Part shown: one piece after another, positions 3,825 to 54,566 of the stretch
How the letters are laid out: each line of letters begins with the position of its first letter
How positions within the stretch are numbered: the stretch's first letter is position 1
Virus record (IMG/VR): IMGVR_UViG_3300021958_000026
Direction: 5' to 3' (one strand)
Source of the DNA: an uncultured virus (IMG/VR IMGVR_UViG_3300021958_000026)
Lineage: Duplodnaviria > Heunggongvirae > Uroviricota > Caudoviricetes
Length of the DNA stretch: 64,000 nt
Translations under genes and position numbers: made by a program
Notes under the pieces: model-generated
What the model saw: the letters and a program-made list of their open reading frames with translations, nothing else
Databases searched by the model: none
What the model was told of the DNA's origin: nothing

Positions 3825-4299
3825 AGTCACTACCAAAGTATCCTGTTCCAATTGGAATCTGTATTTCTGTTGTTGAACCATCTTCTGCAACAATCGTCAT
3901 CTTAATATACTCTGTACCGTCTTCGTTGGTAATCACTTCATACGTTATCGTTGAACCTTCTAACACAAATGAACCAAACCTTACTGGATTGTCATTTTGA
4001 AACATTGACTCTACCAGTTGTTTTGCCATCTGTGCATAAATTCTACTCTCCAAGTTTCTAATAAACTTTGCAAGTGTAGTGTTATCTGCCTCACGTTCTG
4101 CAGCTTTACGTGCTGCCTCCAAAGCATCCTCTATCGCTTTCTTACGAGAATGTTCTTGGTTCTCAATCGTGAGATAATGAGAACCAGTACCTATCCCACT
4201 AAAGGATGGGTTTTTAAACTTATGTACTATCTCAGTTGCATTTGCATTCATTGACAAAAGAAGTGTAAATAACACTACTTTCCAATCTCTGTCATTCAT
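3802..4299 (-). CDS. csgF: Curli assembly protein CsgF
   Basis: Signal peptide then EIVHKFKNPSFSG...LTIENQ (CsgF N-terminal F-x-NP-x-F-x-G motif) and C-terminal TTEIQIP. Directly upstream of csgG. Confidence 0.85.
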   Translation of the reverse strand: MNDRDWKVVLFTLLLSMNANATEIVHKFKNPSFSGIGTGSHYLTIENQEHSRKKAIEDALEAARKAAEREADNTTLAKFIRNLESRIYAQMAKQLVESMFQNDNPVRFGSFVLEGSTITYEVITNEDGTEYIKMTIVAEDGSTTEIQIPIGTGYFGSDYGTNPDG

Positions 4300-4603
4300 G
4301 TGTATGTTCCCTTTGTTTATATTCCTTGAGTAATTCGTCTTCTTTTGCCTCTTCAATCAATTCATCACGTTTTCTGTACTCAAGAACCACGTTCACTTTT
4401 TGTTGTAATCTAATCATGTCCTGATCTAACATACGAGTTTGGTCAATAACACGTATCAACGCCATATGCATTTTCTCAATTTCAGGTTCTATTTGATTAG
4501 AAATAAAACTCCATATAAAGTATATGAAGTATCCCATACCGACACTCATAACAACTGGAAATCCATAGTCCTTGACTACTTGTGCGATTTCAGTAAAATC
4601 CAT
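4292..4603 (-). CDS. Small membrane protein (N-terminal TM helix plus coiled coil)
   Basis: DYGFPVVMSVGMGYFIYFIW TM segment. Similar architecture to 4624-4917. Confidence 0.7.
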   Translation of the reverse strand: MDFTEIAQVVKDYGFPVVMSVGMGYFIYFIWSFISNQIEPEIEKMHMALIRVIDQTRMLDQDMIRLQQKVNVVLEYRKRDELIEEAKEDELLKEYKQREHTHE

Positions 4604-4623
4604 TGTCTTTTGTGTCCTCTCCG

Positions 4624-4917
4624 CTAGTCTCTCCTCACATCCAGTTTACCGTCTTCGATAAAGTTTTCTGCACGAGAGATTCTTTCGATGTCAGGTCTCA
4701 AGTCTAGTGCGCTTGATACTAACAAATCAATTTTTATCATTTCATTTGACATAGTTCTTGCTCTGTTCTCTAATGAGGAACAGAATGTTGTCAGGGTTTT
4801 AATGTTATCCACTATACCCTCAAGAATCTGTTTTAGAACGATGAAGATAAAAATACCCATCACTATCGCACCTGCGATTGGTGTTCCGACATCGCCTATA
4901 AATTCAAAGAAATCCAT
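4624..4917 (-). CDS. Small membrane protein (N-terminal TM helix plus coiled coil)
   Basis: DVGTPIAGAIVMGIFIFIVL TM segment. First gene of the curli operon, after a late-promoter motif at 4923-4930. Confidence 0.7.
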   Translation of the reverse strand: MDFFEFIGDVGTPIAGAIVMGIFIFIVLKQILEGIVDNIKTLTTFCSSLENRARTMSNEMIKIDLLVSSALDLRPDIERISRAENFIEDGKLDVRRD

Positions 4918-4922
4918 ACACT

Positions 4923-4956
4923 TATTTATGGAAATGGACTGGTTGTAACCTAAATA
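4923..4956. promoter_or_regulatory. Divergent T4-type late promoter motifs
   Basis: CATAAATA on minus (4923-4930) just upstream of the curli operon; CTAAATA on plus (4950-4956) just upstream of the riboswitch. Confidence 0.55.
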
Positions 4957-4962
4957 ATTGTA

Positions 4963-5021
4963 CGTTCATTTATACTTTATCTGAAGTATAGACGGAAGTA
5001 GTCAATTGTGACGAAGGAACG
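4963..5021 (+). ncRNA. Glutamine riboswitch (glnA RNA motif), aptamer 1
   Basis: CGTTC...GAACG P1; TATACTT/AAGTATA P2; GACGGAAGTA junction; GTCA/TGAC P3; GAAG. Matches the glnA motif three-way junction as I recall it. Confidence 0.85.
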
Positions 5022-5029
5022 CATTGTTA

Positions 5030-5076
5030 CGTTCATCTAGTAATAGACGGAAGTAGGCAATGGTGCTGAAGGAACG
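5030..5076 (+). ncRNA. Glutamine riboswitch (glnA RNA motif), aptamer 2
   Basis: CGTTCATCTA-GTAA-TAGACGGAAGTA-GGCA-ATGG-TGCT-GAAGGAACG. Same conserved core as aptamer 1 with different, covarying stems. Confidence 0.85.
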
Positions 5077-5096
5077 CAATCTTTTCGGAGATTGAC

Positions 5097-5246
5097 ATGA
5101 CTAAATATCAAACTTTGCTCTTTATAAGAGCAGTCAAAAAATCTCTTAGGGAAAAACACCTTACATCTAGTGTCAAGAACACTGTAAGGGAAAATAAGAA
5201 AATAGAATTACCTCATTATATCAGAGAGAATCCTTTCTATCCTTAA
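5097..5246 (+). CDS. Small basic protein, 49 aa, downstream of the glutamine riboswitch (not in ORF track)
   Basis: MTKYQTLLFIRAVKKSLREKHLTSSVKNTVRENKKIELPHYIRENPFYP. GGAG RBS at 5087-5090; followed by a hairpin. Confidence 0.7.
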   Translation: MTKYQTLLFIRAVKKSLREKHLTSSVKNTVRENKKIELPHYIRENPFYP

Positions 5247-5249
5247 GAT

Positions 5250-5277
5250 AAAAAAAAAGGGGTCGTAAGACCCCTTC
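5250..5277 (-). terminator. Intrinsic terminator (possibly bidirectional)
   Basis: AAGGGGTC-GTAA-GACCCCTT hairpin with a long T-run on the minus strand, between convergent genes. Confidence 0.8.
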
Positions 5278-5302
5278 TAACAATTGTTATTATTGTTTGT
5301 AC

Positions 5303-5578
5303 TTATTTTAACTGTGTGTGGATTTCGTTAATCACTGCAGCCTTAGTACCTGACTTCTTCACTTTAAGATTTCTCTTTTCAGCAAATTCAATCAGTTGGT
5401 TTTTGGTTAACTTCTTAAGCTCTGCTTTAGAAGTGACACCATTACCATTTGCATCTGCTACTGGAGCAGGTGCTGGTGCAGGACTGGAAGTTGAAGAAGA
5501 AGTGTTACCACCTTTTCTCTTTTCCAAAACGAAAAATGCGACACCTAATACAACTAGTGCTATCACAAAAATTTCCAT
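5303..5578 (-). CDS. Membrane-anchored protein with C-terminal Rho-N/SAP-like helix-extension-helix domain
   Basis: N-terminal TM helix, S/PA linker, then LKKLTKNQLIEFAEKRNLKVKKSGTKAAVINEI. Confidence 0.6.
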   Translation of the reverse strand: MEIFVIALVVLGVAFFVLEKRKGGNTSSSTSSPAPAPAPVADANGNGVTSKAELKKLTKNQLIEFAEKRNLKVKKSGTKAAVINEIHTQLK

Positions 5579-39133: not shown

Positions 39134-39838
39134 TCAACCCATTATAGGGTCACCGTTTTCGTCTATTTCAAAAAGAAATTCATCAGGATGGTAGTTTTGT
39201 GGTTCACCAAATTGACCTCCATCACCATGGTATTTAACTACCATATTGAATGAAATGCTGTATCGGTCTTTATCTGTCATGTTGGGTTCTACCATATGCA
39301 TCAATCCACTAGGAAATAAAATTAACATACCTGATGTGGGTGCATAACTCATAGAACCTGGCGCCCGAGGTGAATGTGGAAAATCAGACACAACCTTAAC
39401 ATCTTTATCGACCATATCTATGCAACCTTCATCACCGTCTCCCTTTATATAAAACACACCACTATACCAACATCCATTATGCATATGTGGTTTATTCCAT
39501 GCAGAGAAATCGTTTACGTTAGCCCAAGAGTTACCAATATGTATCGATGTTTTTGTTTGGTCTAATCCATGAAAAGGAAATACTTCATCTTTAAAAAGTT
39601 GTTCTATTTTTCTCATTAACTGTTGTAAAATTGGATTTGATTCACACCCATCGTTTGATTGCCAACCAGTATATGCATTAGATACTCTTCTACCTTCAGG
39701 GTCTTTTCTTCTCATACCATCTATTGCATCTACACACTGTTGAAGATACTCATTAGTTATTCCTCTTCTTTTATCCAAGTTTGGGTCTAATAAGTTTCTT
39801 TCAAATACAAAATTAGGAAATAGTAATCTAACTGCCAT
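39134..39838 (-). CDS. 2OG-Fe(II) oxygenase-like protein (TIGR02466 type)
   Basis: SWANVN..WNKPHMH..YSGVFY..LFPSGLMHMVEPN..RYSISFN. Confidence 0.85.
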   Translation of the reverse strand: MAVRLLFPNFVFERNLLDPNLDKRRGITNEYLQQCVDAIDGMRRKDPEGRRVSNAYTGWQSNDGCESNPILQQLMRKIEQLFKDEVFPFHGLDQTKTSIHIGNSWANVNDFSAWNKPHMHNGCWYSGVFYIKGDGDEGCIDMVDKDVKVVSDFPHSPRAPGSMSYAPTSGMLILFPSGLMHMVEPNMTDKDRYSISFNMVVKYHGDGGQFGEPQNYHPDEFLFEIDENGDPIMG

Positions 39839-40730
39839 CTAAATCTAACTCCAGTTGATGTTCTCCACTATCATCGTTTTCGCTTACATGAAATGGACAC
39901 TCAGGTGGTGGAGATTCTTCTTTATAAAACTTGCCTTTAGGTGTCCAATATTCACCTTTTCTATATCCACCACTAGTTAAATTTTCTGCTCTATCTGATT
40001 CAGATAGGCCTGGTTTTCTAACCCACTCATCCATTGTTGCACCTGTTCCATCTTCTTGTGAATGATGTGATGTAACGGATGACCTATTTTCTGTGAATGA
40101 TTTGTGGTCGTATTGAATATAACTTGCATTCCACTCTTCTCTTTTATATGGAATCACTTGACACAAAGGAGTTCCTTCTTTTATAGTAAATGAATGATTC
40201 ACCTTTGGATAAAAGATTATCTGTGCATTGTCCATATTCTTATTGAATTTATCGGTATCTATAATTCCTTGCCAAGTTGCAAAGTATCTATTTTGAAAAA
40301 GAAAGGGGTCTAAGTAAAAACAAGAATAGCCTGGAGGTGTAACTACGTTCCATGGATTTCTCATTTTAAAGGCATCTTTAATCGGGCCTTCATTATCTAA
40401 GTATTGAAATGCACCTGCCATTTGTTCTGAGGGGTGCGAAGGTGATGCATAATCACCATTATCTACAACATGACCTCTAGAATGGTCATCATTAGTTTCA
40501 GGAGTTCTTCCAAACTTAACATGCAAATCTCTATTTGCAATTAAATACCACCCACTCTTTAACCAATCATCCATAGCAGGACATGCACGAATAGTAGTCG
40601 TCTTCTTATTTCTAACGTCCATTCCAACTTTAGCACGTTTCCACCAATGTGGTTGGTATTTTCTTGCTAAAACAGGTCTAAAGTTTTTTGTTGTTTCAGT
40701 ATCGTATGTTGTGAACTCTATCGTTGGCAC
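39828..40730 (-). CDS. Conserved hypothetical protein (DUF6065-like beta fold)
   Basis: TIRACPAMDDW, NPWNVVTPPGYS, GIIDTD, IKEGTPLCQVIPYKRE. I recognise this type from oxygenase cassettes next to phage tail genes. Confidence 0.65.
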   Translation of the reverse strand: MPTIEFTTYDTETTKNFRPVLARKYQPHWWKRAKVGMDVRNKKTTTIRACPAMDDWLKSGWYLIANRDLHVKFGRTPETNDDHSRGHVVDNGDYASPSHPSEQMAGAFQYLDNEGPIKDAFKMRNPWNVVTPPGYSCFYLDPFLFQNRYFATWQGIIDTDKFNKNMDNAQIIFYPKVNHSFTIKEGTPLCQVIPYKREEWNASYIQYDHKSFTENRSSVTSHHSQEDGTGATMDEWVRKPGLSESDRAENLTSGGYRKGEYWTPKGKFYKEESPPPECPFHVSENDDSGEHQLELDLDGS

Positions 40731-41418
40731 TAAACATTTCCTCACTATCTATTAATTGAACCTCGTCACCTCTAAGAACAATTGACCTTCTGTCTACATA
40801 TTTTGCTTTAGGTGTTGGTGCATCTGCACCATGTGGTATTCTACCATCAAACATTAATAACCTATTAGGTTTGAATTCAACTTCACCTATCTGATGGTTT
40901 TTAATGTGTTCGTCTCTACCTTGAAGTCCAAACTGTGGTTCATCATAAAATCTTAAATTTCCACCCCACTCCTTGTTCCAAAATCTATTATAGTAATATA
41001 AAAAAGATAGATTCCATTCATCATGGTCAGCACAATCAGAGTGAGTGGTTCCATGTAATCCTTGTGTCTGACTATTCAATCCCATGTATTGAAATCTAAT
41101 CCACTTAAATTGAAAGTCAGTTTGGATTCTTCGGTTAAACCATAAAGGTATATAGGAGTGATATTCATCTTGACCTTGTTCTAATCTTTCATCCTCTCTA
41201 AGAAAACTTGCACCCCAAAAACTATGATGTGGTAATCCTGTGGGATTTCTACTGCTTACTTGATTGGTCTTAGACCATATAGAACTATTGGTTAAAATTT
41301 TATCTATATGATGATGTAATTCTGTACATAGATAGTCATCAATTACATAGATTTTTTTAAGTGGTAGTTCTGTGACCTTGAATGGTTCATCCAAGTACAC
41401 AATATCAAAATCAGACAT
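40696..41418 (-). CDS. 2OG-Fe(II) oxygenase (prolyl hydroxylase-like)
   Basis: HSD, SFLYY..W..EWGG, PNRLLMFDGRIPHGA, R-x-S. Confidence 0.85.
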   Translation of the reverse strand: MSDFDIVYLDEPFKVTELPLKKIYVIDDYLCTELHHHIDKILTNSSIWSKTNQVSSRNPTGLPHHSFWGASFLREDERLEQGQDEYHSYIPLWFNRRIQTDFQFKWIRFQYMGLNSQTQGLHGTTHSDCADHDEWNLSFLYYYNRFWNKEWGGNLRFYDEPQFGLQGRDEHIKNHQIGEVEFKPNRLLMFDGRIPHGADAPTPKAKYVDRRSIVLRGDEVQLIDSEEMFSANDRVHNIRY

Positions 41419-41419
41419 A

Positions 41420-41986
41420 CTAAGTCCTGGCTTGACTATCAGGTGCCTGTAAAGGTTGTGGAATTACACTAAGATACTCTTCGAAGTCTTTTAAGAAGTC
41501 TTCTCTAGTATTTAAAATCTCTTCTTCTACTTGTTGATAACAACACCAAAGGGCATCTATGTACTCTAAAACACGTCTTGCAGGTGACCTTGCAGGATGT
41601 GCTGAACCCTCTCTACCTGCAATAAGAACTTCAACTTCATTATCAAAACCATATGCATTACATTGATTATTAACATTTTCATGACACATGTCATTAAGAC
41701 GTTTTAGGAATTGGTTGTTTAAAGAATAACCTATAGGAGGTTCAGAGTTTTCTATGTATAACTCAATAGCATCTTTCTCTTCGTCATTAAGTTTTATGTG
41801 GTCTTGACTATCAAACCCTAAACTATCGTCCCATTTAAGAACCTTGACTTCGATGTCTGAATACACCAGCATGTCATATTCAAAACCTAACTCAGGTGCA
41901 TCTACATTTTCAAAACTGTATGAGAGACCATTAGGTTTGGTGATTCTCAATTCACCATTTTCTGTATATATTAATTCACTTTTCAT
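41420..41986 (-). CDS. Hypothetical protein, possible tail-fibre assembly chaperone
   Basis: Acidic; position downstream of fibre genes; C-terminal helical region. Confidence 0.5.
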   Translation of the reverse strand: MKSELIYTENGELRITKPNGLSYSFENVDAPELGFEYDMLVYSDIEVKVLKWDDSLGFDSQDHIKLNDEEKDAIELYIENSEPPIGYSLNNQFLKRLNDMCHENVNNQCNAYGFDNEVEVLIAGREGSAHPARSPARRVLEYIDALWCCYQQVEEEILNTREDFLKDFEEYLSVIPQPLQAPDSQART

Positions 41987-42002
41987 AAGTTACCTCTTTC
42001 AT

Positions 42003-42031
42003 ATTATAAACTATAATGTGGGATTTGTCAA
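42003..42031 (-). promoter_or_regulatory. Consensus sigma70 promoter driving the oxygenase cassette
   Basis: Perfect TTGACA-17nt-TATAAT followed by GAGG RBS and ATG 41986. Confidence 0.85.
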
Positions 42032-43581
42032 ACTAAAATTTCCCATCTTTTGTAAATATCTAAATTATTTATGTGGGAATAATCCATACTTTCTACCCAA
42101 GGCCCACCCCTTGTGTAATGAATACCGTTGAAATCCCATTTAGTTTCAGGGTCATCATACCCTTCTGTAAATATATATCGTTCAGGAATCTTACTGATTT
42201 TGTCCGTCCATTCAAATTGATGGAGTTGTTTTCCTGTCCAAGTGTTAACCACTTCAGGTGTTAATTTTTTACAATCTTCATGTCCATTGTTAAATATCAT
42301 TAGACTTGACCACAGTTTTTTGGGGTAATCGATATTTACCTCACCTTTAAACTTAGTGCCATCATGTTTGTATTGTGGATACTGAATACATGCAACAGCA
42401 TCATCAGGATTTAAATAATAGAACATAGGTAATAAACTTTTTTGAAAGATGAAGTCATCATCAATGAACATACTGAATCCTTCATAGTTCTCTAAGTATG
42501 GAATTAAAAATCTACTGTAAGTAAACTCAGTTGATTGATTTGCATACTCTCTAGTGTATTCAGGTATCTTTGAAACATCTAAGAACTTAACTTCAGGTTT
42601 AAATTTTACCTGTTCAATACAGTGACCATTACCAGTGTCCTTTTCGATGGTGTCTAATATAGATTTTTTTGCAATCTCAGGCAGGTCTCTGTGTCTACTG
42701 TCGTATCCAATATAGATATTGAATGGTTTACCTTTTGCAAGTTCTGTAACCTTTTTATTGAATTCATATACAACTGGACGAAACATACCTACGTTCATTA
42801 AGTTTGTATTATACTCTAATGCACCTTCAATAAGTGTAAAGGAAACATTATAGTGTCCATTGTCTTTATTTAATTCAGGTCTTGCATCAAGTTTGGTTTT
42901 CCAATACTCTATAAGTTCATCTACAGTAACAGCAGGGGAATCGATTGCATCATACTTATCTATGATACATAACTCCATATCAGGGTCACCCATTTCTTCA
43001 AATACTCCTGACCTAACAGAGCCTGGATGTATTCTTAATTGATATCTGCTATCTTTAACAAGTTCTACCACTTTACCTTGAATTGGTGCCCAAAGACCTT
43101 CTTTTTGAATACTTTGAGTTAACCAGTGTGCTTTTGCAGCATGGTAATACATTGAATGTAATGACTCTGCATCACTTTCTGTAGGAGTGTATCCATCATT
43201 CCATGTGACTTCGTTTTCAATATCTATGTACTCACCATCAAGTGTAATGGTGTCCATACCTGCGACACCTTTCTCTTCATTTCTTGGTTTGGTGGTGTAT
43301 CCTAAAGGTAGGAATTTATGATAACATGGTGCTTCATTTTTGAGACCGTTGAACAGTGACCACTTAGATGATTTGCGTTCCTTTTCAAAATCACCCCATT
43401 TAAAAATCTTAATTGGTGGAATGATTTCTTCCATGACATACTTCAGAATCTTATACGATTCTTTTTCAGAGTAATCTCTGTCTATGTCAATTTGTCCTAG
43501 ATGATAATACTTACCACTGAAATCCTCAACCTTTGAGAGGATTTCTTTTGCAATATCGTATTCCTTTAAATCAATAAACAT
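42028..43581 (-). CDS. Two-domain protein: unknown (weakly ParB-like) N-terminus fused to a GT-A glycosyltransferase
   Basis: C-terminal IYIGYDSR, STEFTYSRF, FIDDDF (DxD), WSSLMIFN, IHYTRGGPW. Confidence 0.8.
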   Translation of the reverse strand: MFIDLKEYDIAKEILSKVEDFSGKYYHLGQIDIDRDYSEKESYKILKYVMEEIIPPIKIFKWGDFEKERKSSKWSLFNGLKNEAPCYHKFLPLGYTTKPRNEEKGVAGMDTITLDGEYIDIENEVTWNDGYTPTESDAESLHSMYYHAAKAHWLTQSIQKEGLWAPIQGKVVELVKDSRYQLRIHPGSVRSGVFEEMGDPDMELCIIDKYDAIDSPAVTVDELIEYWKTKLDARPELNKDNGHYNVSFTLIEGALEYNTNLMNVGMFRPVVYEFNKKVTELAKGKPFNIYIGYDSRHRDLPEIAKKSILDTIEKDTGNGHCIEQVKFKPEVKFLDVSKIPEYTREYANQSTEFTYSRFLIPYLENYEGFSMFIDDDFIFQKSLLPMFYYLNPDDAVACIQYPQYKHDGTKFKGEVNIDYPKKLWSSLMIFNNGHEDCKKLTPEVVNTWTGKQLHQFEWTDKISKIPERYIFTEGYDDPETKWDFNGIHYTRGGPWVESMDYSHINNLDIYKRWEILV

Positions 43582-43620
43582 AATATAAACCGAATTGTTA
43601 AACTTACTAGTATTTAGTCA

Positions 43621-44448
43621 CTAGGAAATAGGTGTTGCAGGCCACTGTTGTGATAATTCACCATCCCATCTTGCAACTGGAGTTCTACCCTGTCTTGCAT
43701 AGGTAAACGGTTGTCTATGTTGATAGGTAAATGGTGTTTGACCTTGACGTGCATAAGTAAATGGTTGTCTATTTTGATAGGTGAAAGGTGTTTGACCCTG
43801 TCTTGCATATGTCACTGGTTGTCTATGCTGATAGGTGAAAGGTGTTTGACCCTGTCTTGCATATGTCACTGGTTGTCTATGTTGATATGTAAACGGTTGT
43901 CTTGCACTAGCAATATATGGGTATTGTCCATTTGCAATGTAAGGATACGGTTGTTGTGCATTAGCAATATAAGGCGATTGTGCATTTGCAATATATGGGT
44001 ACGGTTGTTGTGCTGATGCAATATATGGACTTTGTGCATTTCTAATGTTAGGTTCTTGTGCTGACCTTATATTTGGTTCTTGTGCAGACCTTATATTTGG
44101 TTCTTGTGCAGACACAGGGTTTCTATAGGTAAATGGTGACCTATAGTTGTATGTAAACGGTTGTCTTGCATTAGCAATATAAGGAACCCTATATGTAAAT
44201 GGTACTCTATAGGTAAACGGTTGTCTTGCATTAGCAATATAAGGCACACGATATGTAAACGGTGACCGATAAGTTACAGGTTGTTGTGCTGATGCAGGAT
44301 ATCTATTGGAATACGTAAATGGGTTTTGGAACGTAAACGGTTGTTGTGCTGATGCAGGATACCTAGCATTATAGGTAAACGGAGTCTGCACGTTTATCGT
44401 GCTTCTCGCATTTCCTGTTGTTATCGTCCTATAAAAACCTGTTGCCAT
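43621..44448 (-). CDS. Repeat-array fibre protein B (reverse-complement partner of A)
   Basis: Residues 21-254 are 30 units of 6/8/10 aa beginning [QR]xP. Confidence 0.8.
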   Translation of the reverse strand: MATGFYRTITTGNARSTINVQTPFTYNARYPASAQQPFTFQNPFTYSNRYPASAQQPVTYRSPFTYRVPYIANARQPFTYRVPFTYRVPYIANARQPFTYNYRSPFTYRNPVSAQEPNIRSAQEPNIRSAQEPNIRNAQSPYIASAQQPYPYIANAQSPYIANAQQPYPYIANGQYPYIASARQPFTYQHRQPVTYARQGQTPFTYQHRQPVTYARQGQTPFTYQNRQPFTYARQGQTPFTYQHRQPFTYARQGRTPVARWDGELSQQWPATPIS

Positions 44449-45282
44449 TTTACTTTATAATCCTCATTATTTCAATTGTTGTGGGAAGAAACCGCCACCG
44501 CCGCCACCACCACCGTAGAAGTATACAACATTCTGTCTGAAGTTATACGTATACGGTTGTTGTGCTGTACTTGGTTGTCTTGCGTTTGCAATATAAGGCA
44601 CACGATAGGTAAATGGGTTCCTTGCACTGTTTGGTTGTCTTGCATTAGCAATATAAGGTACACGATATGTAAACGGTGACCTAAATGCTACTGGTTGTCT
44701 TGCATTTGCAGGATACCTTGCACTATAAGTGAACGGTGTTTGACCGTTTGCTGGATATCGAGCATTTGCAGGATACCTTGCACTATAAGTGAACGGTGTT
44801 TGACCATTTCTAATATTAGGTTCTTGTGCAGACACAGGGTTTCTGTATGTAAATGGAGACCTATGGTTGTATGTAAACGGTGACCTATGTTGATAGGTAA
44901 ACGGTGACCTATGTTGATAGGTAAACGGTTGTCTGTTTTGATATGTGAAAGGAGTTTGTCCTTGTCTAGCATATGTTACAGGTTGTCTATGTTGATACGT
45001 AAATGGTGTCTGACCTTGTCTAGCATATGTAAATGGTTGTCTATGTTGATACGTAAATGGTGTCTGACCATTTGCAATATAAGGTGACTGTGCATTTGCA
45101 ATGTAAGGATAAGGTTGTTGTGCATCAGCAATATATGGTGATTGTGCATTTGCTATATAAGGATAAGGTTGTTGTGCATCTGCAATATATGGTGTTTGTC
45201 CATTTGCAATGTACGGATAAGGTTGTTGTGCATTAGCAATATATGGATACTGACCATTTGCAATGTACGGATAAGGTTGTTG
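43687..45282 (-). repeat. Coding tandem repeat arrays of genes B (43687-44388) and A (44581-45282)
   Basis: 18/24/30-nt units. Exact DNA duplications include 43775-43827 = 43829-43881 and 44702-44745 = 44762-44805. Confidence 0.9.
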
Positions 45283-45438
45283 AGTTAACTCTTGACCTGA
45301 AGCGTCATTCCAACCAGTAGGAGTTTTGATGTAAATTTGTTTTACAGCACTCCAAGTACCTTGTGCAGTTTTTACCCATGCACCTCTTGTAGCACTCCAC
45401 CCTGTAGGTGTTTTTACGCTTTGATTACCTGACGCCAT
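44467..45438 (-). CDS. Repeat-array fibre protein A with N-terminal VK-x3-W docking-like domain
   Basis: N-terminal VKTPTGW/WVKTAQGTW/IYIKTPTGW motifs; residues 53-286 are 30 repeat units; poly-Gly near the C-terminus. Confidence 0.8.
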   Translation of the reverse strand: MASGNQSVKTPTGWSATRGAWVKTAQGTWSAVKQIYIKTPTGWNDASGQELTQQPYPYIANGQYPYIANAQQPYPYIANGQTPYIADAQQPYPYIANAQSPYIADAQQPYPYIANAQSPYIANGQTPFTYQHRQPFTYARQGQTPFTYQHRQPVTYARQGQTPFTYQNRQPFTYQHRSPFTYQHRSPFTYNHRSPFTYRNPVSAQEPNIRNGQTPFTYSARYPANARYPANGQTPFTYSARYPANARQPVAFRSPFTYRVPYIANARQPNSARNPFTYRVPYIANARQPSTAQQPYTYNFRQNVVYFYGGGGGGGGFFPQQLK

Positions 45439-45472
45439 TTATGTTTTTATCCTCACTAATCTACGCAATTAT

Positions 45473-46990
45473 TTATGCGTAGTAAATCCACAAGTCACCA
45501 ACTGCACCATCACCTGATGAAGGTGTAGAAGTTGATTGATGTATATTCCTTGCAACAGCACCACTATTGTTGGCATAGTTTGTACTAATTTGTGTAAACT
45601 CTACGTTTGATGATGTTGAAACTGCCTGTCCGATACTTACCTGACCTGAAGAAACTGAAACACCAGTTCCTGCAGTGATTAATCCTTGTACTTCTGAATC
45701 TGTTCTTTCAGTAAATGATACTACACCAGTTGAACTGTTGTATGATAAATCACCACCAGCAGAGATTGAACCTCTTGCTCTTGCAGTAGTATGATATAAA
45801 TTGGTTGAGCCTTCAGAAACATCGTCTGTATCATGGTTTGAAATATCTGAAACTGTTCCAGTTACATCTCCAGTTAAGTTACCAATAAATGTTGCTGCAA
45901 CCATAGACTCTGAACCGACTGTCCATCTATCGTTGGTCTCATCCCATAAGAATGTTTTTGCAGCTGAACCACCTCTTGAGATACTTAAACCAGCATCTTG
46001 AGTAGGTGAACCTGATGTGAAATCAGAGTTTAAATTTAGAATGTTATCTGCAAGGTTGATTGTTTCTGAGTTAACAGTAGTTGTTGTACCTGAAACTGTA
46101 AGGTCTCCAGTAATTACAACTGTATCGTTAAGTGTAACATTACCTGTTCCATTACCACTTAATACTAAGTTAGTATCTGCACTTCTTGATGCAATTTGGT
46201 TTACACTGATATTGTTTCCAAACTCTACATCGTTACCTGCACTGTTGGTGATTGTTTCACCATCCAACATTTGAAGTGTACCTTTTGCTTGAATGATACC
46301 TGTACCTGATGGGTTGAACTCAATGTCACCACTACCAGCAGTTTTCATTTGAAGGTTTTGGTCACTGTCAGCAGAAACAACGATTGTTCCTGAACTATCT
46401 TCTAATACTTTTTGTCCGTTAACATAAAGTGACCCTGGCCCGACATATACGTCTCTCCATTGATACGATGCTGAACCTAAGTCGTAGGTAACATCTGCAC
46501 TTGGAAGAATATGTCCTGAAACTGTTGATGCACCTGTAAGTGTCATACCTGCAAATGAAGGTGAATCTGAAGTTCCTACTGCCTGACCGATACTAACTTC
46601 ACCACTTGAAACTGAAACACCAGTTCCAGCAGTAATTTTAGATTGAATTGTTGCATCTGAAATTACAAGGTCAACTGCACCGTCTCCTGCATCATCGTAA
46701 GATGCAGTAATGTTTGTATGTGAACCGTTGGTTACTAATTGACCACCAACTATATCTTGAATCTCTTCTTCTGTCTTACCAGTTGATGAAATCGTGATAG
46801 TATCGTTTGTATCATCATAGGTTACTGTGGTTGAACCTGAACCCTGAATAATACCACCGATTTTGTCTGCGATTGCTTCTTGAACGGCAGCACCAACACC
46901 ACTTGCAGTGATGTTACCTGAACTATCGATAACCTCTACGTTACCAACGGTCAGACCATTCTTGATTATAAAATTCTTTTCCCCTGCCAT
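45473..46990 (-). CDS. Tail fibre/spike-like structural protein
   Basis: G/S/T-rich; GDLTVSGTTTTVNS motif, EGSTNLY repeat, C-terminal PSSGDGAVGDLWIYY. Confidence 0.75.
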   Translation of the reverse strand: MAGEKNFIIKNGLTVGNVEVIDSSGNITASGVGAAVQEAIADKIGGIIQGSGSTTVTYDDTNDTITISSTGKTEEEIQDIVGGQLVTNGSHTNITASYDDAGDGAVDLVISDATIQSKITAGTGVSVSSGEVSIGQAVGTSDSPSFAGMTLTGASTVSGHILPSADVTYDLGSASYQWRDVYVGPGSLYVNGQKVLEDSSGTIVVSADSDQNLQMKTAGSGDIEFNPSGTGIIQAKGTLQMLDGETITNSAGNDVEFGNNISVNQIASRSADTNLVLSGNGTGNVTLNDTVVITGDLTVSGTTTTVNSETINLADNILNLNSDFTSGSPTQDAGLSISRGGSAAKTFLWDETNDRWTVGSESMVAATFIGNLTGDVTGTVSDISNHDTDDVSEGSTNLYHTTARARGSISAGGDLSYNSSTGVVSFTERTDSEVQGLITAGTGVSVSSGQVSIGQAVSTSSNVEFTQISTNYANNSGAVARNIHQSTSTPSSGDGAVGDLWIYYA

Positions 46991-52533: not shown

Positions 52534-53349
52534 TTATACACTCGTGTTACTTGGATTCTTAGAGAATCTTGCAGTAGGAACGGACTGGTGAATTTTTTCT
52601 AATGTTCCACCATCGTTTACATATACTTCATCAAGTTTTCTAAGTGTTCCACTATCATTCACAAAAACACCTTTAACCTTTGCAACTGGCCCAACGGTTC
52701 TTGTAGTTGGGTAGGATACTTGATAGGTAAATGGTGACCTTATAGTATAAGGAATCTGATATGCAACTTGATAGGTAAATGGTGTTTGACTATTTGCAAT
52801 ATACGGACTCTGTGCATTTACAGGGTTTCTATATGTAGAAGGTGACCTATGTTGATAGGTAAACGGATTCCTTGCATTTGCAATGTAAGGATATGCCTGT
52901 TGTGCAGACCTAATATTTGGTTCCTGTGCATTTGCAATGTACGGATAGGGTTGTTGAGCATTTGCAATGTACGGATAAGGTTGTTGATTGTTATACGTGA
53001 AAGGTGTTCTACCTTGTCTAGCATACGTTGCAGGTTGTCTGTTACTATAGGTAAATGGTGTTTGACCTTGACGTGCATAGGTAACAGGTTGTCTATTTTG
53101 ATATGTAAACGGTTGTCTGTTCTGATAAGTAAATGGTTGTCTACTCTGATACGTAAACGGTGTTTGACCCTGTCTTGCATAGGTTACAGGTTGTCTTGCA
53201 TTAGCAATATATGGACTTTGTGCATTCGCAATATAAGGATACGGTTGCTGTGCATTAGCAATATAAGGCGTTCTACCCTGCAATGCATAAGGTGTTTGAC
53301 CTTGTGCAATATAAGGATACGGTTGTTGTGTGGTTTGCAACTCTGCCAT
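52534..53349 (-). CDS. Repeat-array fibre protein C (reverse-complement partner of D)
   Basis: Residues 8-193 are 22 repeat units; C-terminal VFVNDSGTL/VYVNDGGTL docking-like motifs. Confidence 0.8.
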   Translation of the reverse strand: MAELQTTQQPYPYIAQGQTPYALQGRTPYIANAQQPYPYIANAQSPYIANARQPVTYARQGQTPFTYQSRQPFTYQNRQPFTYQNRQPVTYARQGQTPFTYSNRQPATYARQGRTPFTYNNQQPYPYIANAQQPYPYIANAQEPNIRSAQQAYPYIANARNPFTYQHRSPSTYRNPVNAQSPYIANSQTPFTYQVAYQIPYTIRSPFTYQVSYPTTRTVGPVAKVKGVFVNDSGTLRKLDEVYVNDGGTLEKIHQSVPTARFSKNPSNTSV

Positions 53350-54461
53350 TTTTAGTTCTCGTTAAACTGTCCTGTAGATGCAATCAGTTCTATTCCACCT
53401 GAAGTATAAGTTGTAATATAACTGTCACTACTTCCTGAAGGAGTTGCACGGACTGTAAATGTTACACCATATGTGCCACCAATACCAGTTTCAACCCTTG
53501 AAAAGGACGAACCATAGTTTGGATTAACCTTTGCCATCCAACCAAATGTTGTGAGTGAATAATATGTTCCTGAATTATACCCATCGGTAACTGGTGTGGG
53601 CCCAAATGCACCACTCATACAATTACCTGAACACGATTGCTGAGATACTGTATATTTACATTCAAATGTTGAAGAATCTGTTACTGGAGACTGATAATTA
53701 ATTGAGTCGGTATACACTGTTGCCATTTGTGCTGAAGTACCAGCTTTCCAGCTAACATCGACTTGGTTATTTGTAGTGTCTAAACTAAACCCCATTGTTG
53801 CGAATGCTTCAGGGAATCCTGAAGAGTTAACACTTTGACGAGGAACCCATGGACTTGCACCTGATGGGCCCCAAGATTGGTCTAGAGGACTGATGCTTTG
53901 TGTTCCAGTTGCATTAAACGTATAAGGTGTCTGTGCAATATATGGGTAAGGTTGTTGATTACTATACGTAAATGGTGACCTACCCTGTCTTGCATAGGTA
54001 AACGGTTGTCTATGATTATAGGTAAACGGACTTTGATACGATGCAATGTACGGATACGGTTGTTGAGCGTTTGCAATATAAGGTGACTGAGCATTTGCAA
54101 TGTATGGACTCTGACCATTTGCAATGTATGGACTCTGTTTGTTTGCTATGTACGGATAGGGTTGTTGAGCATTAGCAATGTATGGAGTCTGACTATTTGC
54201 GATATAAGGATACGGTTGTTGTGCATTTGCAACATATGGTGTTCTACCCTGTCTTGCATACGTGAAAGGAGTCTGTCCCTGACGTGCATACGTGAACGGA
54301 GAACGATAGTTATAGGTAAAAGGTGTTCTACCTTGGTTTTGGTATGTAAAGGGTTGCTGAGCGTTTCTTATAAATGGTGTCTGTGCATTTACAGGACTTC
54401 TGTAGGTAAACGGTTGTCTGTTTTGATACGTACTAGGTTGTCTTGCGTTTGCAGGAGTCTG
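52771..54461 (-). repeat. Coding tandem repeat arrays of genes C (52771-53328) and D (53904-54461)
   Basis: Same 18/24/30-nt unit vocabulary as A/B in a different order. Confidence 0.9.
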
Positions 54462-54566
54462 TGCAGGAGTCTGTCTGACTTCTAGCGATTGAGCATTTCT
54501 TACAGATTGACCTTGGTACGGTTGTTGAAAACTCGACCCTGTGTTTATATAGATTTCATCAGCCAT
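53352..54566 (-). CDS. Repeat-array fibre protein D with C-terminal ~180-aa globular domain
   Basis: Residues 36-221 are 22 repeat units, followed by a non-repetitive S/T/G-rich beta-type domain. Confidence 0.8.
   Translation of the reverse strand: MADEIYINTGSSFQQPYQGQSVRNAQSLEVRQTPAQTPANARQPSTYQNRQPFTYRSPVNAQTPFIRNAQQPFTYQNQGRTPFTYNYRSPFTYARQGQTPFTYARQGRTPYVANAQQPYPYIANSQTPYIANAQQPYPYIANKQSPYIANGQSPYIANAQSPYIANAQQPYPYIASYQSPFTYNHRQPFTYARQGRSPFTYSNQQPYPYIAQTPYTFNATGTQSISPLDQSWGPSGASPWVPRQSVNSSGFPEAFATMGFSLDTTNNQVDVSWKAGTSAQMATVYTDSINYQSPVTDSSTFECKYTVSQQSCSGNCMSGAFGPTPVTDGYNSGTYYSLTTFGWMAKVNPNYGSSFSRVETGIGGTYGVTFTVRATPSGSSDSYITTYTSGGIELIASTGQFNEN

Follow-up and report, generated by a model that had tools for sequence, protein, structure and literature searches.

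Two adjacent genes, here called A and B, lie on the minus strand of a 64,000-nucleotide stretch of DNA from an uncultured virus (IMG/VR record IMGVR_UViG_3300021958_000026), which is referred to in full as the window. Both genes encode arrays of short proline-bearing repeat units, and the array of A read from its N-terminus was found to be the unit-by-unit complement of the array of B read from its C-terminus. We consider it probable, at roughly three chances in four, that the two proteins form a heteromeric antiparallel beta zipper, a fibre encoded in the host-recognition gene cluster of a marine T4-like myovirus.

Mirror relation between the arrays of A and B

Gene A (44467..45438, minus strand) encodes 323 amino acids and consists of an N-terminal domain, an array of 30 units and a Gly-run tail. 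Gene B (43621..44448, minus strand), the second gene of the pair, encodes 275 amino acids with a short N-terminus, a 30-unit array and a conserved C-terminal tail. An initial annotation of this DNA had placed the two open reading frames (ORFs) at these positions, which were confirmed, and had claimed that A read forwards and B read backwards share the same series of unit lengths. We tokenised the translations independently by cutting two residues before each proline (xxP), the second P of PYP being ignored, and obtained 30 units of 6, 8 or 10 residues in residues 53-286 of A (44581..45282, minus strand) and 30 units in residues 21-254 of B (43687..44388, minus strand). The unit lengths of A from N to C are 10,8,10,8,10,8,10,8,8,10,8,10,8,8,8,8,6,6,8,8,6,6,8,6,6,6,8,6,6,8, and the lengths of B read from C to N are identical at 30/30 positions, as had been claimed.

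The units were also said to swap between two classes at every position. Under this two-class scheme (F-class, P[FV]TY...; A-class, P...ANA/SA) the facing units are of opposite class in 29 of the 30 positions. The claim therefore stands for these 29 and fails for RQPVAF facing QQPVTY, where both units have a small residue at position 4 and an aromatic one at position 6. This pattern fits a third, self-facing class seen in relatives, in which PVAF facing PVTY recurs 4 times. In the proposed permutation test of A against reversed B, every non-F unit was counted as A-class, so that RQPVAF scores as swapped and all 30 tokens match; among 200,000 shuffles of the unit order of B the mean was 5.9 matches and none exceeded 16. 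Chance as the origin of the mirror is excluded, since no shuffle reached 30 matches. The best off-register alignment of A and B matched 12/28 units, and the complement alignment joins residues 53-299 of A with residues 11-257 of B over 247 residues with 0 gaps.

Persistence of the mirror relation in related loci

A total of 387 related stretches were found by scanning IMG/VR with gene A, and the best 80 loci were kept. Two adjacent array genes on the same strand occur in 77 of these 80 loci and one array gene occurs in the remaining three; collapsing identical pairs left 56 distinct pairs, each consisting of a gene 1 (corresponding to A) and a gene 2 (corresponding to B). When the unit lengths of gene 1 were aligned with the reversed unit lengths of gene 2, 1993 of 2047 positions were equal, with 32 mismatches and 22 gaps, whereas the unreversed control gave 1185 equal positions. 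The blocks in exact mirror represent 41 distinct architectures of 10 to 68 units. The behaviour of homologous pairs with differing unit order had been set beforehand as the observation able to refute the initial annotation, and mirror-complementarity was found to be kept in these pairs.

The arrays range from 150 to 520 residues and their lengths in gene 1 and gene 2 are closely correlated (r=0.98). Two large length differences, in L009 and L070, are due to a gene 2 that is cut by the contig end. Changes in one gene were found to be matched in the other: L063 has one extra 18-residue doublet in both genes compared with L048, the two loci being matched at two different doublet numbers, and L016 has one extra xab-yyy block compared with L012. 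In an all-against-all token comparison, the gene 2 of the same locus was the best or tied-best mirrored partner of gene 1 in 51 of the 56 pairs. In two of the five exceptions gene 2 is truncated, and in the other three the cognate gene 2 was narrowly outscored, in L011 and L059 by that of a close relative.

Facing units and residue register

Among facing units of equal length in the relatives, F-class faces A-class in 587 of 706 6-mers, 893 of 940 8-mers and 330 of 332 10-mers, and F-class was never observed to face F-class. A third class of 6-mer (P[AVR][GS]Y) faces itself (P[AV][GS]Y) in 76 facing pairs. Further sub-rules were observed within the two main classes: FTYQ[HY] units stand opposite NIR and FTY[QNS][NA] units opposite YIANA, while PGTYARQG stands opposite PYPYIANS, PFTYARQG opposite PYPYIANA and PFTF opposite PNNA.

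The covariation between facing F-class and A-class units peaks where the position in the F unit and the position in the A unit add up to L+4, for unit lengths L of 6, 8 and 10 (sums 5.14, 5.68 and 3.61 respectively), and it is strong only at same-parity sums. Over 13,492 mirrored residues, the mutual information between residues peaks when the unit mirror is shifted by +3, at 1.70 bits compared with 1.17 bits at shift 0. In this register FTY lies opposite the reversed ANA, and the 2- and 4-residue insertions of both classes lie opposite each other. Each [QR]-x-P box is opposite a P-x-[QR] box: out of 1790 residues at position 1 (Q or R), 1773 face P. The residues at position 2 face one another.

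The pairs at position 2 depart strongly from expectation. The pairs found in excess are Q.T (547 observed, 188 expected), Q.S (318 and 206), E.S (226 and 41), N.N (146 and 42) and V.Y (126 and 7), whereas Q.Q (9 and 181) and T.T (2 and 49) are depleted. Two parts of the initial annotation have to be modified. The antiparallel direction of the pairing is retained, although the best-supported residue register is shifted by 3 from the unit-on-unit mirror that was first described. The two-letter, three-length code holds for lengths and classes, but its alphabet is larger, as it includes the third self-facing class, the sub-rules and a separate pairing at position 2.

Beta signature and size complementarity

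The arrays of the relatives are made almost entirely of units of even length (1559 of length 6, 1994 of length 8 and 732 of length 10, compared with 16 of length 7 and 25 of length 9). The composition of the 13,492 array residues also follows a strict period of two. Aromatic residues (F, Y, W and H) make up 0.349 of the even positions and 0.001 of the odd positions, whereas proline makes up 0.000 of the even and 0.286 of the odd positions. Facing even residues were found to be complementary in size. Out of 6746 facing even pairs, 4643 contain one aromatic, 2073 none and 30 two. The volumes of the partners are negatively correlated (r=-0.49) and the spread of the summed volume is 45.5, compared with 63.7 after re-pairing.

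The strict period-2 composition and the same-parity covariation, which links only residues of one face that stand directly or diagonally opposite each other, match what an antiparallel beta ladder would predict, and because of these two features we infer a beta geometry. In an antiparallel sheet, the textbook geometry would place all the prolines in pairs with backbone groups pointing away from the partner strand. As the even face is rich in aromatics, several ribbons of A and B may be packed together, perhaps three as in other phage fibres.

Three other folds were considered for the arrays. An alpha helix is excluded by the prolines, and a coiled-coil zipper is ruled out by Pro at 0.286 of the odd positions together with units of 6, 8 and 10 residues. 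A collagen-like triple helix is ruled out by the fraction of Gly (0.045 at even and 0.008 at odd positions) and by the absence of a period of 3.

Structure predictions were of little help. The prediction by ESMFold2, which covered the A+B complex only, gave a score of 0.00 with a partner predicted local distance difference test (pLDDT) value below 50 and speaks neither for nor against binding. The AF2 monomer model of P0103, a relative in which two arrays are fused in one chain, was uninformative (mean pLDDT 31.0, predicted template modelling score (pTM) 0.14, from an alignment of 15 fused proteins). In the ESM Atlas, all feature matches of B were below 0.9 and its structure neighbours were extended models of low confidence; a feature match to a cluster with gp37_trimer scored 0.78, which is a lead-level score only.

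These models bear on an alternative in which the two chains pair antiparallel not as beta strands but as polyproline II (PPII)-like or other extended helices, like the stalk of antigen I/II. The presence of Pro every 6-10 residues in both chains, their richness in Gln, Tyr and Thr, the failure of AF2 to model the array as beta structure and the extensin-like models among the ESM Atlas structure neighbours (none above the bar of the tool) would all fit such a helix. However, its three-residue period predicts unit lengths in multiples of 3 and no period-2 pattern, against which stand the units of almost only 6, 8 and 10 residues, the segregation by parity over the whole set of residues and the same-parity covariation. 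A stalk of the antigen I/II type itself was rejected, as both chains bear Pro and show the even/odd segregation. We therefore regard helical pairing of this kind as very unlikely and retain the beta ladder as the preferred geometry.

A second pair, its specificity and natural fusions

A six-frame motif scan of the window revealed a second pair of genes, C and D, which follow the same code with a different unit order. Gene C (53352..54566, minus strand; 404 amino acids) is the first chain of this pair, with residues 18-229 mirror-complementary to D and a beta-sandwich domain in residues 212-404. Gene D (52534..53349, minus strand; 271 amino acids) pairs with C through residues 4-214 and carries a C-terminal VKGxFVNxxG motif, with a match to phrog_13729 at residues 223-256.

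Specificity was measured with a log-odds pairing matrix trained only on the 56 A/B-type pairs, by aligning one protein with the other reversed. A and B score 422 (in sample; 247 aligned, 0 gaps) and C and D score 286 (out of sample; 210 aligned, 3 gaps), whereas the cross pairs among the four proteins score 111-134 and the unreversed controls 12-23. In all 16 distinct genomes that hold both pairs, counted over loci with four complete adjacent array genes, both cognate scores are higher than all four non-cognate scores. By these scores the A/B and C/D pairs are orthogonal within one phage.

Eight loci at the C/D position have a single gene of 484-543 amino acids with the N-terminus of C and the C-terminal motif of D (L095:9104-10699, L097:9245-10876, L099:149-1615, L100:9278-10810, L106:9644-11110, L121:9272-10741, L133:9401-10855 and L135:7203-8657, of which L133 and L135 are identical). 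Their N-arm scores 88-188 against the reversed C-arm, compared with 14-18 for the unreversed controls, which cover these 8 locus genes only, and the fusion in L099 has 149 complementary residues with no gaps. Seven further fused proteins from two protein searches (P0069, P0075, P0089, P0103, P0106, P0117 and P0152) have hairpin scores of 121-210, and a search with L099 for further fused relatives returned only 3 loci. In the fusions, the arms are joined by a central region of ~120-150 residues in place of the globular domain of C. No fused or self-mirrored form was found in the A/B lineage among 31 longer homologues of A (567-695 amino acids), in which the best self-mirror run is at most 8 units.

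Mirror-complementary arms within one chain can pair only antiparallel, as a hairpin. The fusions thus provide gene-fusion evidence for contact and for its direction and, together with the low non-cognate scores, support the antiparallel pairing of A and B proposed at the outset.

Relation of the two genes at the DNA level

Only three inverted repeats, all weak and of 15-22 nucleotides (nt), were found in 43500-45600. The A array is 21% identical to the reverse complement of the B array at the mirrored offset, and the best identity at any offset is 36%, codon-shuffled controls averaging 34% and reaching at most 37%. The three antisense frames of A have no 4-mer in common with B. An inverted duplication or an antisense reading frame as the cause of the mirror was rejected, as the inverted DNA similarity that either needs is absent. 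When compared in the same direction, the blocks of A-class and F-class units in the two genes show 71% identity over 378 nt, and A and B are therefore ordinary paralogues, with blocks ordered such that every block stands opposite its complement.

The direct relation also bears on an explanation in which A and B do not touch each other, form separate homomeric fibres and owe their mirror to a common third periodic partner or to a concerted genetic mechanism. The paralogous blocks show that the arrays exchange sequence or have a shared ancestry, and the binding of A to B is itself deduced from sequence. Against this, a third partner would need to vary in step across the 41 architectures, and there is no inverted repeat or antisense relation through which an array could be copied in mirrored form. 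In addition, it is difficult to account for the size complementarity of the residues and for the pairs at position 2 if the chains do not touch, and in the fused forms the two arms belong to a single chain. We consider the absence of contact highly improbable.

Ends of the proposed fibre and terminal domains

The start of gene B is 18 nt downstream of gene A on the same strand. An identical Shine-Dalgarno (SD)-like sequence, TGAGGAT, is found 12-13 nt before the ATG of both genes (44449-44466 and 45439-45472, minus strand), which suggests and is compatible with similar translation levels.

The N-terminal 52 residues of gene 1 are conserved. In A (45283..45438, minus strand) they form a domain with repeated VKTxxGW motifs that is kept in all 56 distinct gene-1 proteins and for which no Pfam or PHROG family was found. 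The C-terminal tail of gene 2 is also conserved. In B it corresponds to residues 255-275 (43624..43686, minus strand; RTPVARWDGELSQQWPATPIS), and the consensus RTPV[AI]RWDGxLxQxWP[AG]TP is recurrent in the 56 pairs. An antiparallel arrangement brings these two ends together, and the joint end is likely to be the virion-proximal (attachment) end. The N-terminal domain of A and the C-terminal end of D (52534-52700, minus strand) were observed to have a like motif, V-K-x-x-x-G-W/F ... [IV]-Y-V; this motif part may dock on another fibre protein.

The C-terminus of gene 1 is variable and consists of a short Gly-run tail, a Hint/intein-like domain or an unrelated domain of ~150 residues. By terminus comparison, residues 287-323 of A (44470..44580, minus strand) contain the final degenerate units and the tail YFYGGGGGGGGFFPQQLK; no Hint/intein domain was found in A with Pfam, the Gly-run and this short tail being all that is present. 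GGGG-C...VHN junctions were found in 12 of the 56 distinct pairs (L005, L014, L022, L026, L042, L045, L046, L055, L064, L066, L067 and L078), where a Gly-run and a Cys are followed by a Hint/intein-like domain of ~150 amino acids whose last residues are His-Asn. As the terminal His-Asn has no following nucleophile, self-cleavage rather than splicing is suggested for these gene-1 proteins. In L005 (gene 1 at 4001-5305), residues 280-430 match PF14890 with 45.1 bits (cut-off 35.8). The gene 1 of L047 has a comparable C-terminal domain without the junction, and many database homologues of A carry the same Hint families.

In the second pair, a VKGxFVNxxG-type motif is at the C-terminus of D and a globular domain at the C-terminus of C, and the end functions would therefore be on different chains, unlike in A/B. 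The C-terminal 193 residues of C (53355-53933, minus strand) are predicted by AF2 as an all-beta sandwich (pLDDT 82.4, pTM 0.80). No relative of this domain was found in the PDB at a Foldseek E-value (E) of at most 0.001, the best being CfaE with E 0.022 and a template modelling (TM) score of 0.17. A wide search with VIA-align also gave the fimbrial adhesin CfaE as the best match, with a Z of 5.2 (root-mean-square deviation 4.2, 126 aligned), which is the level of a common arrangement. The domain is a candidate for a distal or receptor-binding tip.

The ends and the SD-like sites are relevant to a further alternative, in which the antiparallel pairing of B with A is confined to assembly, where B acts as a folding template or a checker of length and register, and B is absent from the finished fibre, like T4 gp38 and gp57A. 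The mirror, covariation and specificity data are explained equally well by such a transient role, B, the shorter of the two chains, lacks a large domain, and phage fibres often need a chaperone encoded alongside them, gp57A and gp38 assisting gp37 (PMC6957217). However, the fusions in the sister pair hold both arms in one polypeptide, where transient pairing would need proteolysis, and the conserved tail of B beside the N-domain of A is what would be expected of a joint structural end. The equal SD-like sites suggest a similar dosage, and it would be costly to make, for each client chain, one template of the same length. A role for B as template or chaperone is thus unlikely, and a fibre that contains both chains is preferred.

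Gene neighbourhood and source phage

A fibre-like structural gene (45473..46990, minus strand; 505 amino acids; phrog_697 'structural protein') lies upstream of gene A, and a homologue is present upstream of gene 1 in all 45 loci that have room for it. A glycosyltransferase-like gene (42028..43581, minus strand; 517 amino acids) lies downstream of gene B and matches phrog_28018 (E 2.5e-41) and, weakly and under the cut-off, Pfam GT8 (16.3 bits); in all 50 loci with room, a gene of this kind immediately follows gene 2 on the same strand. In the window it belongs to a block at 39134-43581 (minus strand), directly downstream of gene B, that also contains a 188-amino-acid gene of no known function, a 2-oxoglutarate (2OG)-Fe(II) oxygenase (40696-41418, minus strand; PF13640, 37.8 bits) and a second oxygenase (39134-39838, minus strand; PF13759, 70.5 bits). 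The enzymes of this block might modify the repeat proteins, which hold an invariant Pro in every unit.

The pair is surrounded by fibre-like (phrog_697 and phrog_15769) and baseplate genes. Upstream of it are a gene for a 2232-amino-acid protein (phrog_358) and a gp8-like wedge gene, the product of which is 35-37% identical to its counterparts in Pelagibacter phage HTVC008M and Synechococcus phage S-RIM8. By this match the source phage is a marine T4-like myovirus with no close cultured relative. A variable 'host recognition cluster' has been described in pelagimyophages and cyanomyophages (PMC7029224), and the gene context of A/B may fit this cluster; no mention of repeat proteins of this kind was found in the passages of that paper on the cluster.

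Nearly all the long ORFs across the window are on the minus strand. The T4 late-promoter word TATAAATA has 8 matches in the window, all on the minus strand. This number does not exceed chance, as 8 or more matches were found in 7 of 100 shuffles, and no match lies directly upstream of A or C. No Pfam family was found for A, B, C or D at E of at most 0.01, and A, B and C have no PHROG match. Homologues of A are numerous, with 412 proteins found, none of which has an informative name.

Proposed arrangement and its weight

In the arrangement that we propose, A and B would be extended beta strands of opposite direction, each residue paired with one on the partner chain, over a length of about 235-247 residues. 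A [QR]-x-P box and a core would make up each unit, with all the aromatics on the even face and all the prolines on the odd face. Each [QR]-x-P box would lie opposite a P-x-[QR] box, so that P faces Q/R and position 2 pairs as Q.T, Q.S, E.S, N.N or V.Y, and the even core residues would face their complements in size (F.A, Y.A, Y.G, Y.V, H.N and also R.Y). As the F-class core is large-large and the A-class core small-small, F-class would have to face A-class, while the third class, being small-large, would face itself. An insertion of 2 or 4 residues would need a match on the other chain. The aperiodic order of the units would serve as an address that fixes a single register and prevents cross-pairing of A/B with C/D. 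The N-terminal domain of A and the C-terminal tail of B would be at the proximal end, with the variable C-terminus of gene 1 and the N-terminus of B at the other end. The fibre could consist of two chains or of several A-B pairs. The length of 75-80 nm that had been given for it is arithmetic on an assumed fully extended strand.

Several observations weigh against this reading. The class swap is not universal, as 119 of the 706 facing 6-mers are not F.A, and unmatched units in a few pairs account for the 32 mismatches and 22 gaps, part of which may have arisen from errors of the tokeniser or of the assembly. In L038 (148-2167), gene 1 is one 18-residue zy doublet shorter than the mirror of its partner, which could reflect either a natural intermediate with a tolerated bulge or a tandem repeat that collapsed in the assembly. 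A is partly self-complementary, with a self-hairpin score of 195 compared with 422 for A with B. The events counted in the covariation analysis are not independent, since the sequences are related and units recur within an array. The pair was not found in any cultured phage among the 50,697 phage records searched (tblastn of A and of its N-terminal 52 amino acids, megablast of 8.5 kb), a search in which the low-complexity filter may hide array matches and from which records close to the window may be missing. Finally, the fold, the number of chains and the geometry are derived from sequence statistics, and the placement of A and B on the virion is presumptive.

A broader interpretation, for which we see a modest balance in favour, is that the arrays embody a true protein-protein pairing code of rung-by-rung complementarity in size and polarity combined with matched unit lengths. 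Any unit order could then evolve if the partner were mirrored, and orthogonal addresses could be used in one virion. If this is correct, the arrays would represent a principle of long-range protein-protein recognition for which no counterpart was found in the literature, with partner choice, register and length set in a modular code readable from sequence. The length of the fibre, roughly 50-175 nm in relatives by our estimate, would be tuned by matched gains and losses of units in both genes. Such tuning would explain the variation of fibre length and tip domains in the host-recognition cluster of abundant uncultured marine T4-like phages. Public metagenomes contain hundreds of family members, as seen from the IMG/VR stretches and protein homologues counted above, and natural variation already gives dozens of orthogonal pairs, with 41 architectures and two non-cross-matching pairs per genome. 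Programmable, sequence-addressable beta-sheet pairing is an old design goal that could be tested directly with these natural parts, and the pairs would offer a natural programmable beta-zipper for protein nanostructures, as DNA duplexes and designed coiled coils do.

Comparison with known systems

No description of mirror-complementary two-gene fibre arrays was found in our literature searches, and the motif words PYIANA, FTYARQG and PYPYIAN do not occur in the papers checked for them. The closest phage structure is the needle of T4 gp37 (domains D10-D11), whose ascending and descending strands are reportedly antiparallel in the crystal structure of 2010. It resembles the proposed A/B fibre in being a thin phage fibre with a core packed by size-complementary residues of different strands; residue G921 of a beta strand is packed against F970 from a different subunit, and any larger residue in its place would clash (PMC6957217). 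The fold-back topology of gp37 is shared by the single-chain relatives of C/D only. The gp37 protein is a homotrimer of one gene with seven His-bound iron atoms (PMC6957217). The iron is bound along the axis by His-x-His motifs, whereas A and B have no H-x-H, their histidines being single and in FTYQH and FTYNH units. The needle has no modular units of 6, 8 and 10 residues, no mirrored arrays and no second gene. A and B, by contrast, are encoded by two distinct ORFs, each of which has its own start codon and SD-like site, and are not a single chain folded back on itself. They belong to no Pfam or PHROG tail-fibre family and would be roughly five times longer if extended.

In the stalk of streptococcal antigen I/II (SpaP/SspB), an Ala-rich alpha helix and a Pro-rich PPII helix of one chain run antiparallel and are wrapped around each other along the whole length. 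The likeness lies in two different repeat regions in a long antiparallel stalk. The differences are that A and B are separate genes, that both have Pro every 6-10 residues, and that they show a strict period of 2 and a code of facing units with matched insertions and deletions.

Heterospecific coiled coils, such as Fos/Jun and the designed sets, also encode partner choice and register in their repeats, and their orthogonal pairs can coexist. These zippers are built of heptads in alpha helices that are mostly parallel and extend over tens of residues. The arrays of the A/B type, on the other hand, are Pro-rich, would be antiparallel, and use units of 6, 8 and 10 residues over 150-520 residues, with length as part of the code.

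A nucleic-acid duplex can be compared with the pair by analogy only, since the zipper would be a protein polymer with a larger and degenerate alphabet. In both, the strands would be antiparallel, each rung would have one large and one small partner and the register would be addressed by sequence, and both have a hairpin version, seen here in the fused genes, and a two-strand version, seen in the split genes.

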